Positions 32,487 to 38,662 of a stretch of 64,000 bases of DNA are shown piece after piece. Under the pieces are notes generated by a model. The model was given only the letters and a program-made list of their open reading frames with translations. It had not been told where the DNA came from and made no database searches. This DNA is from an uncultured Novosphingobium sp. Lineage in GTDB: Bacteria > Pseudomonadota > Alphaproteobacteria > Sphingomonadales > Sphingomonadaceae. The stretch spans positions 2,219,678-2,283,677 of the forward strand of contig OZ223239.1 in assembly GCA_965140495.1 (NCBI GenBank), in the 5' to 3' direction. The position numbers were made by a program, and so were the translations under genes. Position 1 is the first letter of the stretch, and each line of letters begins with the position of its first letter.

Positions 32487-33374
32487 TCAGGCCTGACCGA
32501 GGCTTTCCAGTATCCTTTCGCTTTCCTGCCACAGCCGGGCCGCGGCGGTGTCGTCCCTGGCCTGTGGGGCAGGATCGAGTTCGGCGAGGTCGTGGAAATA
32601 GCGCCCGCCGTCCTGACCCACGTCCGGCGCCGTCGCCATCCACACGATGGTCCGCGCAGGCGATTCCGGCGGAACGCATTCGTTGGCGGCCATGTAGGCC
32701 TGCATCGCATCGTCCCCGTGACTGGCGAAATTCGAACCGACGCGGCCCGGATGCATGGCCTGCGCGACGATGCCCTTGTCCGACAGCCGCCGGTCGAGTT
32801 CGCGCGTGAACAGCAGGTTGGCGAGCTTGGCCTGACAATAGGCGGTGTTGGCGGCGAAGTTGTCCGCCATCATCAGGTCGTCCCAGTTCATGCCTTCGCA
32901 CACCAGATGCGCGCTGGAGGAGACGGCAATCACCCGCACGGTTCCGGAGGATGCTTCCGCTGCAGCTGCTTCAAGCTGCGGGAGGAGTTCGCGGGTCAGC
33001 AGGAACGGGGCGAGATGGTTGGCGGCAAAGGTCGCCTCGAGCCCTTCCGAGGTCCGGTAATAGGCATCGCGCACGCCGCCGGCGTTGTTGACGAGCACGT
33101 GGATATGGTCGGTCAGTTGGGCGATCTCTTCGGCCACGCGCTTCACCTCGCGCATTTCGGTGAAGTCGCCGCGCACGAAGTCGATGCGCGCGCCCGGGCC
33201 TGCAACCGCCTTGATCTCCTCTTCGGCATCGGCGCATCGCTCCGGATCGCGGCCGGTGCCGATGACATGCCAGCCCATGCGGGCAAAGGCTTCGGCGCTG
33301 GCCTTGCCGATCCCGGAACTGGCTCCGGTAATGACGATGCAGCGGCGTTCGCTGGAATTCTGCGATGGCGACAA
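32487..33374 (-). CDS. SDR family oxidoreductase (retinol-dehydrogenase-like subgroup)
   Basis: Track ORF of 295 aa. TGASSGIG cofactor motif, NNAG, catalytic YCQAK. Last gene of the TetR-MFS-SDR operon. Confidence 0.85.
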   Translation of the reverse strand: MSPSQNSSERRCIVITGASSGIGKASAEAFARMGWHVIGTGRDPERCADAEEEIKAVAGPGARIDFVRGDFTEMREVKRVAEEIAQLTDHIHVLVNNAGGVRDAYYRTSEGLEATFAANHLAPFLLTRELLPQLEAAAAEASSGTVRVIAVSSSAHLVCEGMNWDDLMMADNFAANTAYCQAKLANLLFTRELDRRLSDKGIVAQAMHPGRVGSNFASHGDDAMQAYMAANECVPPESPARTIVWMATAPDVGQDGGRYFHDLAELDPAPQARDDTAAARLWQESERILESLGQA

Positions 33375-33396
33375 AGGGTGTCTCCTTTAACGGGTT

Positions 33397-34641
33397 TCAG
33401 GCAGCCTGAGCCGGCATCGGCGGCTCGGTTTCGACGCGGGGCGGCTTGCCGCCGCGTCCGGTCATGAAGAAGCAGAGCGCGCCGACGATCGTCAGCGCGG
33501 CGGCGATGATGAGGAAGGCGTCGAAGCGGGCCGTCGCACCGAGCGTCATGCTCAGCACGATGGAGCCGAAAGCGGTGGCGAGCCCCATCGAGGCGATGAG
33601 GAAGCTGTAGATCAGGCTGAAGTGGGCAAGGTCGAAGGTGCGCGAGGTGAGGTAGGCGCCGATGTCGCCCTCCGCACCCTGCGCCAACCCTACCAGAAGC
33701 ACCGCGCCGGCAAGCAGCCAGCCCTGTTCCGCAGGCGAGGCGAGAATGAGAAAGCCGATCGCGGGAAGGCCGAGCGCGGCCAGCGCCACCTTCTGCGGCG
33801 CCACCTTGTCGAGTGCGATGCCGCTGAAGAAGCGCCCCACCACCACACCGACGGCATAGAGCGAGACGATCCATGTCGCGAGTTGTCCGGGGGCGCCGTT
33901 CTCGATCAGCACGAGCTTGAGCTGCGAGGACACGATCACCTGCGGCACGTTGCAGAAGAACATCCCCGCCACGATGAGCAGGAACGAGGGGTGGCGAAGC
34001 AGTGCCGCGAACTCGCTACGTGTGATCGAGCGTGCCGTATGTTCCGTCGGCCCGTCTTTCGACTTGCTCTTGCCGCTGACCAGCGTGACGGCCGCAATGC
34101 CGCCGATGGCGGAAAGGAGGCCAAGAAGCCGATACCCGGTCCGCCAGCCTTCGCTGTCGATCACTTCGCCGACCAGCGGGACCACAGCAGCGCCTACCAG
34201 CGGGGCGCCGCTCATCAGGATCGAGAGCGCCATGCCGCGCGCGAGGTCGAAGCGCTGGACGATGACGCGGCTGAACACCAGCGTGGTCGTCAGCACGCCG
34301 AACAGGTGCTGGAACACGGTAATCGCGAAGAATTCGTAGATATTGCCGCTCATCACGCTGAACGCGAAGAAGCTGAGCGGCACGACAGTAAAGCCTATGC
34401 CCGCCGCGAGGCGCGCGCCGTAGCGGTCGGTGAAGCGGCCCCAGAACGGGACGACGAACATGCTTGCGAGGCCCAGCGTGCCCACCAGCGCGAATTGCGA
34501 TTTCTCCCACCCGAACTCGGCGATCAGCGCCGGGGCGAAGAGGTTGGTCATGTAGTGATTGAGCGCCGATCCCAGGGCGAGGCCCAGCATGGCACCGAGC
34601 AGCATGGGCCAGTTGACCCGGAATTCCCGGAAATAGGTCAC
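33397..34641 (-). CDS. MFS transporter
   Basis: Track ORF of 414 aa with 12 predicted TM helices. Lies 60 bp after tetR and 22 bp before the SDR. Confidence 0.85.
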   Translation of the reverse strand: MTYFREFRVNWPMLLGAMLGLALGSALNHYMTNLFAPALIAEFGWEKSQFALVGTLGLASMFVVPFWGRFTDRYGARLAAGIGFTVVPLSFFAFSVMSGNIYEFFAITVFQHLFGVLTTTLVFSRVIVQRFDLARGMALSILMSGAPLVGAAVVPLVGEVIDSEGWRTGYRLLGLLSAIGGIAAVTLVSGKSKSKDGPTEHTARSITRSEFAALLRHPSFLLIVAGMFFCNVPQVIVSSQLKLVLIENGAPGQLATWIVSLYAVGVVVGRFFSGIALDKVAPQKVALAALGLPAIGFLILASPAEQGWLLAGAVLLVGLAQGAEGDIGAYLTSRTFDLAHFSLIYSFLIASMGLATAFGSIVLSMTLGATARFDAFLIIAAALTIVGALCFFMTGRGGKPPRVETEPPMPAQAA

Positions 34642-34701
34642 GTCACTCTCTCTCCCATTGTCCGCGTCCGCTCTTGCAGATCACGGATTGCCGCCTTTGC
34701 C

Positions 34702-35376
34702 TCAGCGGGGTTCGGCGCCCTTCAGAAACAGCCGTACCGCGAAACGCACGCGGCGGTCGATATCTTCGCGTCCAAGATCGTTGCCCGAAAGGATGAAACG
34801 CACCGGGCCGCTGACCACCATGCTCATGAAAACGTTCGCCGCCAGCAACGGATCGTCGATGGCCAGATGTCCGGCAGTCGTCTCGTCTTTCAGAATGTCG
34901 GCGAGGAACCGCACGGTGGGCAGCGCGGCGATGTCGTAATAGGTCTGGAAGATGTCCGGGAAGCGGTAGGACTCGGTGTTGATCAGCCGCTGCAGCTTGG
35001 TCCCTTCGGGCGTCGAGACCAGCGCAATGCGCAGCTTGGCGATATTGACCAGCGTTTCTTCCAGATCGTCGGCGCGGGTGGCGGAAATGACCTCCGGCGT
35101 TGCCGCCAGCCGCTCGGTGCCGCGGCGTACGGCGGCGCGGAAGAGGGCGGTCTTGTCGGCATAGCGCGCATAGACCGTGCGCTTGGTCATGTTCACGTCG
35201 GCCGCGATTGCCTCGATGGTCGCCGCCTCGAAGCCTTTCTCCAGAAATTGCATCAGAGCGCAGTCGAGCAGGGCCTCCTGCCGGGCGCGGGCCTGTTCGC
35301 GCGTCGGGCGTCCTGCGCGTACGGGCGCAGCCGCGGATTTCGGCGGGGAGGGCTTGCGGTGCGTACGCTCGGGCAT
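34702..35376 (-). CDS. TetR family transcriptional regulator
   Basis: Track ORF 34702..35436; ATG 35376 (MPERTHRK) preferred, 35436 possible. HTH FEAATIEAIAADVNMTKRTVYARY. Confidence 0.85.
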   Translation of the reverse strand: MPERTHRKPSPPKSAAAPVRAGRPTREQARARQEALLDCALMQFLEKGFEAATIEAIAADVNMTKRTVYARYADKTALFRAAVRRGTERLAATPEVISATRADDLEETLVNIAKLRIALVSTPEGTKLQRLINTESYRFPDIFQTYYDIAALPTVRFLADILKDETTAGHLAIDDPLLAANVFMSMVVSGPVRFILSGNDLGREDIDRRVRFAVRLFLKGAEPR

Positions 35377-35418
35377 GGGCTGACTGATACCGATTTCGCT
35401 TGCTCCGCCAAGAGAATC

Positions 35419-35434
35419 GCGTTTAATGAAACGC
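35419..35434. promoter_or_regulatory. candidate TetR operator in the divergent tetR / luxE-like spacer
   Basis: GCGTTT-AATG-AAACGC inverted repeat, overlapping a second one, TTAATG-N15-CATTAA (35422-35448). No binding data. Confidence 0.35.
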
Positions 35435-35502
35435 ACAAGATGCCATTAATCGAGTCGCACCGGACTGTCCAGAGCTGCCGGATGGCGACCGCAAGAGGAG
35501 AG

Positions 35503-36858
35503 ATGCAGATGGGCGCAGCAGCCGACAAACTCATGGCCCTGGTAGCCGATCCGGACCGTTTCACGTTTTCGCACGACGATCTGCGCGAGACGCAGATCGC
35601 TGCGCTCAACGAGCGGTTCGAGGAGCGCAAGGACCAGATCAAGCTCCTCTCGCTGCGTGCCCGTGATGCCGGGATCGAGAAGATCGAGCGGATCGCCGAT
35701 GTCGTGCCGATCCTCTTCCCGCACACCGCCTACAAGTCCTACCCGGAAAGCTACCTGATGGATGAGCGTTGGGATCGGCTGACCAAATGGCTGGGGACGA
35801 TCTCTCCCTATCCCATCGAAGGAGTCTCGCTCGAAGGCATCGAGGGGATCGACGACTGGATCGCCCGGCTGGCGGCCAAGGGCTATTTCATCTCCTGCTC
35901 CAGCGGCACGACGGGAAAGTCGGCGATGCTGATCGCCTCGCAGAAGGACATGGACTGGTCGAAGATCGATACGGTCAACGTATTCTCGTGGGGCTCGGGC
36001 GTGAAGCCGGCGCAGGACCGCCTGATCATCGGTTGCGCGCCCGTCGCCACGGTGCCCAAGAACGCGACGATCGCGCAGGCGCAGTACGATGCTTTCGCCA
36101 ATCCCGAATGGCCGCGCTGGACCTATCCGGTGCCGCCGATCACCGTGGGTTCGCTCACCTCGATGGTGGTCATGCGCAAGAAGATCGCCGACGGCACCGC
36201 GCGTCCGGACGAAATCGCCGCGTTTGAAGAGACCTCGGCGATGCGCGCCAAGGCCATCGAGGATGCCGTTCCCGCCACCGCGCAGTTCATCATCGAGAAC
36301 CGCGACAAGAAGCTGCAGCTCTCCGGTCTGTGGAGCGGCCTGTGGCAGGTCGCCAAGGCGGTGCGCGATGCGGGCTATGGCCGTGAGGACTTCAATCCCG
36401 ACAATTCGATCTACGTGGGCGGCGGGCTCAAGCGCGCGCAGCTTCCGGCGGACTATCAGGAATACGTCTTCGAGACTTTCAACATTCCCGAAGACCGCCA
36501 CTTCCAGAACTATTCGATGCAGGAACTGAACTCGGGCATGCCCAAGTGCCGCGAGGGTGGGCGCTACCATTTGCCGCCATGGATGGTCCCGGTCCTGCTC
36601 GACAAGTCGGGCGATGCCGCGCTCGATCATACCGGCGGCGAGATGGAAGGCCGGGCCGCATTCTTCGACCTTTCGCTTGATGGCCGCTGGGGCGGCGTGA
36701 TCACCGGCGACAAGATCTCGCTCGATTTCAGTCCCTGCAAGTGCGGCAATCACGGGCCGTCGGTGCGCGACAACATCGTGCGCTACGCCGATCTGGAGGG
36801 TGACGACAAGATCGGCTGTGCAGGCACCGTCGATGCCTATGTGCGGGGTGTGGCATGA
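35503..36858 (+). CDS. LuxE-type acyl-protein synthetase (adenylate-forming enzyme)
   Basis: Only the 3' 451 codons of track ORF 33622..36858 are plausible. ATG 35503 is preceded by AGGAGAG. Motifs: SSGTTGKS, YVGGGLKR, and a C-terminal CKCGNHGP...DDKIGCAGTVD resembling the LuxE C-terminus with its acylated Cys (from memory). Confidence 0.72.
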   Translation: MQMGAAADKLMALVADPDRFTFSHDDLRETQIAALNERFEERKDQIKLLSLRARDAGIEKIERIADVVPILFPHTAYKSYPESYLMDERWDRLTKWLGTISPYPIEGVSLEGIEGIDDWIARLAAKGYFISCSSGTTGKSAMLIASQKDMDWSKIDTVNVFSWGSGVKPAQDRLIIGCAPVATVPKNATIAQAQYDAFANPEWPRWTYPVPPITVGSLTSMVVMRKKIADGTARPDEIAAFEETSAMRAKAIEDAVPATAQFIIENRDKKLQLSGLWSGLWQVAKAVRDAGYGREDFNPDNSIYVGGGLKRAQLPADYQEYVFETFNIPEDRHFQNYSMQELNSGMPKCREGGRYHLPPWMVPVLLDKSGDAALDHTGGEMEGRAAFFDLSLDGRWGGVITGDKISLDFSPCKCGNHGPSVRDNIVRYADLEGDDKIGCAGTVDAYVRGVA

Positions 36859-38276
36859 ACGATCTGACTGAAACGCGAGAGGGCGAAGATCTCGTCTCGG
36901 CGCCGTTCTTTCTGCGCGGTGAAGTGCTGCACGGCACCGACGTGATCCAGACCTCGCGCGATCTCGGCGTGACTTTCGCAACGCCGCGCATTCCCTTTGA
37001 CAGGGCGATCCCGCCGCGCACCGAAGTGCCGCCGCTGCTCAACGTGCCGCTGGCCGAGATCATCGATTTCCTCGTCGAGACCGGGCAGCGGCTGGTCGCG
37101 AAGGACAACGACCACATGCAGGAGTGCATCGAGCGCATGTGCCGCACGCATATCCTGCCGCGTGCCGTGGTCGAGAACACCGCCCACCATGCCGCCGCCT
37201 ACCTCGACAAGCGCACGCTCATGGCCGAAGTCGAACAGAACTTCCCCGATCCCCGCGCGCTCGATGAATGGGTGCCCAAGCAGGATTACACCGGGCGCAA
37301 GAGCTTCGTGCGCGCCTTCGCGCCGCGTCTGATCCACGTGCTGCCGGGCAATTCGCCGGGTGTGGCGGTGAAGTCGGTGGCGCAGGGCTCGATGGTCAAG
37401 GGCATCAACCTGTTCAAGATGAGCAGCGCCGACCCCTTTACCATGGTCGCGATCCTGCGGACCATGGCGGACCTCGATCCGCAGCATCCCATCGTGAAGT
37501 CGATGTCGGCCGTCTATTGGCGCGGCGGCGACGATGCGACCGAGCGCGTGCTCTACCGCCCGCAGTACTTCGACAAGATCGTCGCCTGGGGCGGTGGTGA
37601 CGCGATCAACAACGTCATCAAATACCTCGGCCCCGGCTTCCAGCTCGTCTCGTTCGATCCCAAGACCTCGATATCGATGGTGGGCAAGGAGGCCTTTGCC
37701 GATGACGAGACCCTCGATCGGGTCGCGGATATGTGTTCGGCCGACGTCATGACGCTCAACCAGGAGGCCTGCGTCGCCAGTCGCTATCAGTTCGTGGAAG
37801 GGCCGCAGGAAGACGTCGACCGCTTCTGCGAGCGCCTGCACCACCATATCGCCCGTCGCGCTGCCGAAAGCGGCGATGTGCGCAAGCTCGATCAGGACAT
37901 GCGCGAAGCGGTCGAGATGATGGTAATGATGGACGACGAGTTCGGCGTCTGGGGCCGTACCGACGGCAAGGGGCTGGTGATCCGTTCCGACGAGCCGGTC
38001 GATTTCCATCCGATCAACAAGACCGCCAATGTCGTGCGCGTCGATAGCCTCGACGATGCCGTGAAGTGGATCAACGTAGCCACGCAGACGGTGGGCTTTT
38101 ATCCTTTCGACCGCATGGCCGATTACCGCGACCGACTGGCCGCCGGCGGGGCGCAACGCATCGTCCACCTCGGCGAGGCGGGGCCGTCCACCATCGGCAA
38201 TCCGCACGATGCCATGTATCCGCTGCACCGCTTCGTGCACTGGATGGCGCATGAAGATGGAAAGGCCGAGGGGTAA
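36855..38276 (+). CDS. LuxC-type acyl-CoA/acyl-protein reductase (aldehyde-forming)
   Basis: Track ORF of 473 aa. ATGA overlap with the upstream gene. LIHVLPGNSPGVAVKSVAQGSMVKGINLFKMSSADP and candidate catalytic Cys in NQEACVASRY resemble the LuxC family (from memory). Confidence 0.72.
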   Translation: MNDLTETREGEDLVSAPFFLRGEVLHGTDVIQTSRDLGVTFATPRIPFDRAIPPRTEVPPLLNVPLAEIIDFLVETGQRLVAKDNDHMQECIERMCRTHILPRAVVENTAHHAAAYLDKRTLMAEVEQNFPDPRALDEWVPKQDYTGRKSFVRAFAPRLIHVLPGNSPGVAVKSVAQGSMVKGINLFKMSSADPFTMVAILRTMADLDPQHPIVKSMSAVYWRGGDDATERVLYRPQYFDKIVAWGGGDAINNVIKYLGPGFQLVSFDPKTSISMVGKEAFADDETLDRVADMCSADVMTLNQEACVASRYQFVEGPQEDVDRFCERLHHHIARRAAESGDVRKLDQDMREAVEMMVMMDDEFGVWGRTDGKGLVIRSDEPVDFHPINKTANVVRVDSLDDAVKWINVATQTVGFYPFDRMADYRDRLAAGGAQRIVHLGEAGPSTIGNPHDAMYPLHRFVHWMAHEDGKAEG

Positions 38277-38307
38277 CAGTGGGGATCAGCGGACGTTGAA
38301 ACATTGA

Positions 38308-38418
38308 CGTCATGCCAGCGAAGGCTGGCATCGTTGTCGCCATGGCATAACCGCATGTCATGGCTGGCTGGGCCGTCTCGCTTGGTACCCAGCGATCCCG
38401 GCCTTAGCTGGGATGACG
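38308..38418. repeat. REP-like inverted pair (family 2, GTCATsCCAGC-kAAG-GCyGGsATC units)
   Basis: Perfect hairpin ATGCCAGC-GAAG-GCTGGCAT at 38312-38331. A related unit in opposite orientation lies at about 38394-38418 (ATCCCGGC-CTTA-GCTGGGAT). Confidence 0.65.
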
Positions 38419-38662
38419 AGCTTTGGTGGGGCGGCTCGCAACCCGAAGCTCGACTCGTTCGAATGACCTTGCTGAAACCGGGCGTCAAAACCACGGCCAC
38501 GATTCCATCGCCCGCGCGAAAATGGTTTCGTGTGAAAGCTTCCGGTGACGCTGCCCCTTGCCTGCAGCGCCCGTTGCGCTAGGCATCGCAGGGCAATGCG
38601 GCGGTACGCATGCGGGAATACCTGTGTCCGTGCCAGCCGACCGATGGAGGATCTAAAGTACC

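Follow-up and report, generated by a model that had tools for sequence, protein, structure and literature searches.

A cluster of five genes in a 64,000-nucleotide stretch of DNA from an uncultured Novosphingobium sp. (contig OZ223239.1; the whole stretch is referred to below as the window) probably codes for a repressor-controlled, self-contained carboxylate-reduction cassette, a reading that takes the chemistry and its regulation together. On the forward strand lie the genes for E (35503-36858, 451 aa), a candidate LuxE-like acyl-protein synthetase, and C (36855-38276, 473 aa), a LuxC-family acyl-thioester reductase. They are divergent from an operon on the reverse strand, which starts with the gene of a TetR-family repressor (34702-35376, 224 aa), continues with a major facilitator superfamily (MFS) transporter gene (33397-34641, 414 aa) that is a lineage-specific accessory, and ends with the gene of a short-chain dehydrogenase/reductase (SDR) oxidoreductase (32487-33374, 295 aa). 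To our knowledge, no two-protein carboxylate reductase other than LuxC-LuxE has been defined biochemically, and nearly all that is known of LuxC-LuxE comes from light-emitting bacteria.

We also put forward a broader proposal, in which our confidence is somewhat less than even. The E proteins of approximately 450 aa would be widespread, unrecognised, stand-alone acyl-protein synthetases with a LuxE-like catalytic core, a Cys3His metal site and a swinging tail that carries a Cys. Paired with LuxC-type proteins, they would do the work of carboxylic acid reductases (CARs) by a route that needs no phosphopantetheine. The SDR-TetR|E-C cassette (the bar marks the divergent spacer) would have moved among Alphaproteobacteria, Verrucomicrobia and Actinomycetota as a unit of enzymes, repressor, promoter and operator, dealing with a single specific carboxylic acid that is a toxin or else a signal.

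The locus had been singled out in an initial annotation of the window. A check of the open reading frames (ORFs) found all five where that annotation had placed them, and the ATGA overlap of E and C at 36855-36858, the gaps of 60 and 22 bp within the TetR-MFS-SDR operon and the 126-bp divergent spacer were all confirmed. Every peptide motif that had been quoted for E and C was located in the translations.

The E and C proteins

To judge from its matches, C is clearly a LuxC-family acyl-thioester reductase of the aldehyde dehydrogenase (ALDH) superfamily. It matched the Pfam LuxC family (PF05893) with E=3.8e-53 and 181.2 bits (cut-off 21) over the full length of the model, residues 63-463 corresponding to model positions 3-401 of 401, and it matched the Photobacterium phosphoreum LuxC in the PDB (7xc6_A) with E=2e-36. 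Both matches bear out its initial assignment as LuxC-type and not a generic ALDH. The NQEAC306 segment was found to align with the active-site DQQAC of P. phosphoreum LuxC, which places the predicted catalytic Cys306 (codon 37770-37772, forward strand) in NQEACVASRY (aa 302-311); the motif LPGNSPGVAVKS was located at aa 163-174. According to a review, only the active-site Cys of LuxC is essential (PMC12041015). Against the NCBIfam equivalog model for LuxC (NF052251) C scored 179.6 bits, far under the cut-off of 750, which makes it a member of the LuxC family and not an orthologue of the luminescence LuxC. C is predicted to be translationally coupled to E through the ATGA overlap.

When E alone was compared with the PDB the best match was LuxE (E=0.023), and a profile built from 65 diverse family members matched LuxE with E=1.1e-11 and PaaK-type ligases with 2.2e-7 to 4e-3. 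The family is large: at least 2280 clusters at 90% identity were found among the candidates scored, and at least 931 representative clusters at 50% identity with E<=1e-3. Its members are about 450 aa long (449 aa in most homologues) and are annotated as 'hypothetical protein', with no family name.

The residues on which LuxE depends were then compared with those of E. According to cryo-EM (cryogenic electron microscopy) work, LuxE has no PaaK C-terminal subdomain and uses instead Lys238 of a GGGWK loop together with Arg355, while Cys364, in a C-terminal loop, is thioesterified and then ferries the acyl group to the LuxC cysteine (PMC9157457; review PMC12041015). In E, the P-loop SSGTTGKS occupies aa 133-140 (35899-35922, forward strand) and GGGLKR aa 306-311 (36418-36435, forward strand). 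GGGLK310 aligned with GGGWK238 of LuxE at a position where PaaK has GA-EP and no Lys, and K310 was retained in 62 of the 65 family members. R427 aligned with R355 of LuxE (retained in 63/65), and RYHLPPW of E with RKHVPPW of LuxE. The E chain stops some 30 residues beyond the equivalent of PaaK residue ~318, which leaves no room for the PaaK C-terminal subdomain, as in LuxE.

R427 and the candidate tail cysteine, Cys439 (codon 36817-36819), are encoded within 36778-36828 on the forward strand. Cys439 lies in IGCAGT, is the 13th residue from the C-terminal end and stands 12 residues past its Arg; Cys364 of LuxE stands 9 past its own. It was retained in 63/65 members, even in those where the other three cysteines are lost. 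The alignment of the E family profile to LuxE ended before the tail Cys. In the AlphaFold2 model of E, which had a predicted local distance difference test (pLDDT) score of 94, values of more than 92 gave way to 64-76 in the final ~20 residues, the sole lower-confidence part of the chain, and this is consistent with a mobile arm.

The other three cysteines appear to have a different role. C349 and H356 (36541-36582, forward strand), and C412 and C414 of the PCKCG segment (aa 411-415, 36733-36747, forward strand), were present jointly in 58 of the 65 aligned members. In four members all four were replaced jointly, a fifth has replacements at three of the positions, and each of these five keeps Cys439; Paraburkholderia paralogues showed the same pattern of lost cluster residues and a kept Cys439. 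This co-variation suggests a structural Cys3His metal site in E that is distinct from the catalytic tail.

Several results weigh against the proposed reading of E and its cassette. E had no match to any Pfam or NCBIfam model even at E<=10, and just four of the 65 diverse members matched the Pfam LuxE family (PF04443), all weakly, with 3.5e-6 the best. LuxE was not among the top 50 Foldseek matches of the E model, which were headed by the CoA ligases PaaK, BT_0428, HCL and ClxA (E~1e-10, TM-score ~0.55, 11-15% identity). About ten of the sphingomonad/alphaproteobacterial loci described below keep E, TetR and SDR with no adjacent LuxC gene, so that E may not be strictly dependent on C and may have another partner at such loci. 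Literature searches, some of them ill-targeted, returned no paper dealing with the family of ~450-aa E proteins or with the SDR-TetR|E-C arrangement. The CoA-ligase folds and the loci in which E has no adjacent C would fit an E that is an ordinary PaaK-like acyl-CoA ligase, in which case C would reduce free acyl-CoA and there would be no acyl-protein relay; LuxC does reduce acyl-CoA in vitro, and the LuxC-like TabE works without LuxE. We nevertheless consider this unlikely, since E lacks the PaaK C-terminal subdomain with its catalytic Lys and has the LuxE-type GGGxK Lys, the tail Cys is almost always kept, and E and C are adjacent throughout the family, with the coupling predicted above. The initial designation of E as LuxE-type stands as far as its best PDB match by sequence, its GGGxK and Arg and its candidate tail Cys are concerned, but not as regards a direct Pfam LuxE match or the fold search. 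E falls outside Pfam LuxE membership while keeping the LuxE catalytic architecture. From these comparisons, the E proteins are better described as a new family that is sister to known ones in the PaaK/LuxE branch of the adenylate-forming enzymes.

Gene linkage across genomes

Genomes were scanned, one per species, with a search seeded by an 8-sequence alignment. This gave 559 loci, of which the best 80 were kept, and linkage was counted at the 73 of these that had enough flanking sequence. Among the best 80 of the 559, the closest locus was that of Novosphingobium indicum, at 96% identity. Orthologues of E at 65-75% identity were found in Sphingomonas, Sphingobium, Phenylobacterium, Rhizomicrobium and a Verrucomicrobia metagenome-assembled genome, and also in the Actinomycetota genera Actinomadura, Nocardia, Parafrankia and Spirillospora.

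A LuxC-type gene was found directly downstream of E in 63/73 loci, with a median gap of 0 and usually overlapping or within 20 bp. A divergent TetR gene was present at E in 66 loci and an SDR orthologue beside the cassette in 62; all three accompanied E in 53, including every one of the 16 Actinomycetota loci. In the Verrucomicrobia locus (L064) the SDR gene lies just downstream of LuxC instead, suggesting that the association survives rearrangement. Flanks beyond the four-gene core were unrelated between lineages, and a scan of the genes flanking the actinobacterial and Verrucomicrobia loci found no further conserved partner.

The MFS protein (Pfam MFS_1, 6.8e-33) behaved differently. It was present in 29 of 52 sphingomonad/alphaproteobacterial loci and in none elsewhere; actinobacteria, Verrucomicrobia, Rhizomicrobium and Phenylobacterium all lack it at these loci. 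Its best NCBIfam matches, the L-lactate MFS transporter SfMCT and the oxalate/formate antiporter family, were both far under their cut-offs. The idea of a five-gene neighbourhood with dedicated transport, raised by the initial annotation, thus needs to be narrowed: E-C, TetR and SDR are kept across phyla, but the transporter, though present here, is an accessory of one lineage.

These counts also bear on whether coincidence alone placed the TetR-MFS-SDR operon next to an E-C pair with which it has no functional relation. The restriction of MFS to sphingomonad/alphaproteobacterial loci would fit such a view, as would Phenylobacterium, where E-C was found alone. We consider it extremely unlikely, and contradicted by the synteny, because TetR and SDR occur together with E-C in 53/73 loci of Alphaproteobacteria, Verrucomicrobia and Actinomycetota whose flanks are otherwise unrelated.

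Identity values were compared between lineages. The actinobacterial C proteins are 74-78% identical to the C of the window, while those of certain Sphingomonas/Sphingobium loci (L057, L066, L075) are just 54-56% identical to it; TetR and SDR show 50-62% identity across phyla. Taken together, these values suggest that the cassette was passed between phyla as a whole. A recent island insertion in the window was not supported, as GC content is 0.63-0.66 across 28-43 kb and the cassette is syntenic within Novosphingobium, where its position is fixed between an HpcH-type lyase gene and Prx/RF2 genes.

Some sphingomonad/alphaproteobacterial loci have a tandem paralogue, E', which is ~53% identical to E and keeps all catalytic motifs. 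Both E-E' arrangements without C (L035, L042, L046, L049, L063) and E-E'-C arrangements (L004, L021) were observed.

Six more distant E paralogues (27-38% identity) were inspected on annotated plasmids. All six adjoin a gene annotated as a LuxC-type acyl-CoA reductase, and often also an SDR gene (a zinc-dependent alcohol dehydrogenase, Zn-ADH, gene in Caballeronia) and a TetR gene. The co-occurrence of E and C seen in the window therefore extends to related genomes, both in the 63/73 loci and in these six. The Caballeronia plasmid has an E - C - Zn-ADH operon (L087:5878-9892), and the Sphingobium paralogue an E - C pair with a convergent TetR gene just downstream. GlcDEF-like oxidase genes lie alongside the Novosphingobium pentaromativorans paralogue, and the Paraburkholderia locus has two E copies with an oxidoreductase and TetR/MarR. 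On a Pseudonocardia plasmid (L086:635-12332) the order is type I polyketide synthase (PKS) - E - C - P450 - MFS. On the Mycobacterium avium plasmid pP7a (L085:5742-11712; 30% identity) TetR is followed by LLM-class F420-dependent oxidoreductase - E - C - phosphotransferase/kinase - SDR; here an oxidoreductase of luciferase-like fold, E and C form a lux-operon-like trio in a non-luminous actinobacterium.

No Bac_luciferase or LuxD-type Pfam domain was detected in the 25 window ORFs scanned, which include nearly all of luciferase, LuxD or LuxG size, and the initial statement that the window has no luciferase or LuxD genes was borne out to that extent. Luciferase-type and luxD genes were likewise absent among the conserved neighbours of the related loci. 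Two window ORFs at 17-739 (240 aa) and 869-1534 (221 aa) had no Pfam match and rather low third-position GC, and may not be genes.

The control region and TetR

The divergent spacer was compared with its homologues in an alignment of 70 non-identical spacers from several phyla, anchored on AATGA. A putative sigma-70-type promoter for E-C was located at 35400-35427 on the forward strand, with a -35 box TTGCTC (35400-35405), a 16-nt spacer and a -10 box TTTAAT (35422-35427). Across the 70 spacers, cTTGC was followed at a fixed distance, 16-17 nt on, by wTAAT, and from this we infer promoter function. A strict consensus scan for promoters and terminators called no promoter here, and terminators were at chance level.

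The 24-nt element TAATGAAACGCACAAGATGCCATT (35424-35447, forward strand), the probable operator of TetR, overlaps both the -10 box and the predicted start of transcription, expected some 7 nt past 35427. Its consensus, TAATGAwACGcAynAGnTGCyATT, was near-invariant in the 70 spacers across phyla. The element occurs once in the 64-kb window, where 0.01 occurrences are expected by chance, and at most once per locus, always immediately upstream of E. Two inverted repeats had been pointed out in the spacer by the initial annotation, and both are present. TTAATG-N15-CATTAA (35423-35449) spans the 24-nt element and is conserved; GCGTTT-N4-AAACGC was rejected as a regulatory element, since it is conserved in the closest relatives only and becomes CGTGAA...AAACGC even within Novosphingobium.

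The TetR protein has the Pfam domains TetR_N and AefR-like TetR_C_7. In its N-terminal arm and its recognition helix (GRPT..QA..R, MTKRTVY) little or nothing changes between Novosphingobium and Actinomadura, Nocardia and Parafrankia, and this constancy of the DNA-reading head parallels that of the 24-nt element in the same taxa. The INTESYRFP block of the ligand domain is also conserved across these taxa, suggesting that TetR responds to the same effector everywhere.

The 24-nt element could alternatively be an RNA leader element or the site of another factor. The Phenylobacterium loci (L001/L038, L048, L051) count against a TetR operator: they keep the -35 and -10 boxes and TAATGAcACG...TGCCATTA some 50-80 nt upstream of E, and have no TetR gene within 8 kb of it, so that the assignment of the operator to TetR is indirect; the regulator may be encoded elsewhere in these genomes. 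The dyad symmetry is also weak, since beyond the outer TAATG/CATTA just a few inner positions take part in it. We nevertheless regard the alternative as very unlikely. The element overlaps a conserved -10 box, what is conserved is its sequence and not pairing, and in the taxa concerned the neighbouring TetR has an invariant DNA-reading head. An RNA-element reading of the spacer is itself unlikely, as Rfam gave no match at the gathering threshold or at E<=1 and the E leader showed no folding signal relative to shuffled sequences (z=0.10).

Start codons were also considered. The TetR coordinates given above correspond to the ATG chosen by the initial annotation; a longer ORF with a GTG start extends to 35436. 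For E, the Shine-Dalgarno sequence GGAGAG (35495-35500) lies 2 nt before the ATG at 35503 and 8 nt before a second ATG at 35509. The second is probably the true start, giving a protein of 449 aa, because its Shine-Dalgarno spacing is better and most homologues have this length. A listed ORF of 1078 aa (33622-36858) corresponds to E plus a spurious upstream extension.

Proposed mechanism and known systems

The initial annotation had interpreted the locus as a carboxylate-to-aldehyde-to-alcohol module under ligand control, and the interpretation is supported computationally by the LuxC identity of C, the LuxE residues of E, the linkage of E-C with TetR and SDR and the conserved probable operator. 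From the gene identities, the conserved residues, the linkage, this conserved element and the TetR head, we infer the binding of TetR, the reaction steps, the direction of the SDR reaction and the physiological role as follows.

When no ligand is present, TetR would sit on the 24-nt operator, over the -10 box and start site, and repress the E-C promoter. The divergent operon to which it belongs, TetR-MFS-SDR, is probably under its control as well. Its release from the operator would be brought about by a small molecule, probably the acid that serves as substrate or the product made from it. The P-loop SSGTTGK, Lys310 in the GGGLK loop and Arg427 would then serve E in the ATP-dependent adenylation of a carboxylic acid, after which E would transfer the acyl group to Cys439 in its mobile C-terminal tail. 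This tail would hand the thioester to Cys306 of C, and its reduction by C, at the expense of NAD(P)H, would yield the free aldehyde. The SDR (Pfam adh_short, 2.7e-31; NCBIfam PRK06197, 1.6e-47) belongs to the retinol-dehydrogenase/WWOX-like group, and we propose that it acts as an aldehyde-to-alcohol reductase, turning the reactive aldehyde into an alcohol. In this lineage, the monocarboxylate-type MFS protein may bring in or remove the acid or the product.

The same chemistry could serve biosynthesis, yielding an endogenous fatty aldehyde or alcohol that acts as a lipid signal or goes into waxes or ether lipids. Fatty-acid reduction is the LuxCE precedent, genes for a PAP2 lipid-phosphatase-like protein and an acyl-CoA synthetase adjoin C in some sphingomonad/alphaproteobacterial loci, and one distant paralogue, that of Pseudonocardia, lies within a type I PKS cluster. 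However, fatty-acid, polyketide and acyltransferase genes are all missing from the conserved core, its outer flanks are unrelated between lineages, and the PAP2 gene is absent from the window. The accessory genes are mostly for transporters, either the MFS protein or, in some actinobacterial loci, a family-5 solute-binding protein and an ABC-type permease, and control by a TetR repressor whose ligand domain is highly conserved is typical of responses to specific small molecules. A biosynthetic role thus seems fairly unlikely. We favour instead the handling of one specific acid, exogenous or stress-derived, since biosynthetic genes are absent from the core, the accessories are transporters of differing types and the repressor is of the ligand type.

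The PAP2 gene was also considered as a member of the cassette and rejected; it is found downstream of C in many sphingomonads but is absent from the window and from non-sphingomonads. In N. indicum a gene for a secreted PAP2-type phosphatase (L003:10882-11754) stands between LuxC and the lipoyl-domain/Prx genes. The corresponding gap in the window (38277-38662, 386 bp) is not homologous to this segment.

If the proposed chemistry is correct, a function would be given to a sizeable piece of enzymatic dark matter. It would provide a route from acid to aldehyde or alcohol with no cofactor arm, which is relevant to biocatalysis, and a compact sensor-operator pair, shared across phyla, for an acid. 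The cassette would also be a clean example of inter-phylum transfer with its cis-regulatory DNA intact. LuxC-LuxE logic appears in a large family outside the Pfam and NCBIfam models, whose genes almost always adjoin one for a LuxC-type reductase and often have an alcohol-forming dehydrogenase and TetR as neighbours.

Enzymes of the LuxC/LuxE type have been described outside lux operons, namely RfbN of Vibrio cholerae, those of the Aeromonas flagellin glycosylation islands, AS87_03730 of Riemerella (known from a luxE mutant) and the stand-alone, LuxC-like TabE of Streptomyces. These examples qualify the initial statement that such homologues have no assigned role. They resemble the present case in that LuxC/LuxE-type enzymes have non-luminous roles. 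They differ, by description, in belonging to glycan or natural-product clusters with acyl carrier proteins, glycosyltransferases or PKS/fatty acid synthase genes, and none has been described with a TetR-SDR cassette.

The nearest counterpart is LuxC-LuxE of P. phosphoreum (7xc6), which is likewise an adjacent two-protein set of an adenylate-forming enzyme and an ALDH-superfamily thioester reductase. E shares with LuxE the P-loop, the GGGxK Lys, the Arg and the HxPPW block, and it has a candidate counterpart of the C-terminal tail Cys. Here, however, E precedes C in the gene order, the two are coupled to an SDR under apparent TetR control, and no luxA, luxB or luxD was found in the 25 window ORFs scanned; E itself exceeds LuxE by ~80 residues, with its N-terminal domain containing two insertions, and has the extra co-varying Cys3His cluster.

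PaaK-type ligases (PaaK1/2, BT_0428, HCL, ClxA) have in common with E the SSGTxGK P-loop and the N-terminal architecture. E lacks their C-terminal subdomain and catalytic Lys, whereas PaaK lacks the GGGxK Lys and the tail Cys, and E is paired with LuxC and not with paa genes.

In cells, the aldehyde made by a CAR is often reduced further by an aldehyde reductase. CARs of the Nocardia/Mycobacterium type share the predicted net reaction, in which acid, ATP and NADPH give an aldehyde. By description, a CAR is a single A-PCP-R (adenylation, peptidyl carrier protein, reductase) polypeptide with a phosphopantetheine arm and an SDR-type R domain, whereas the cassette has two proteins, a proposed Cys-tail carrier and an ALDH-type reductase.

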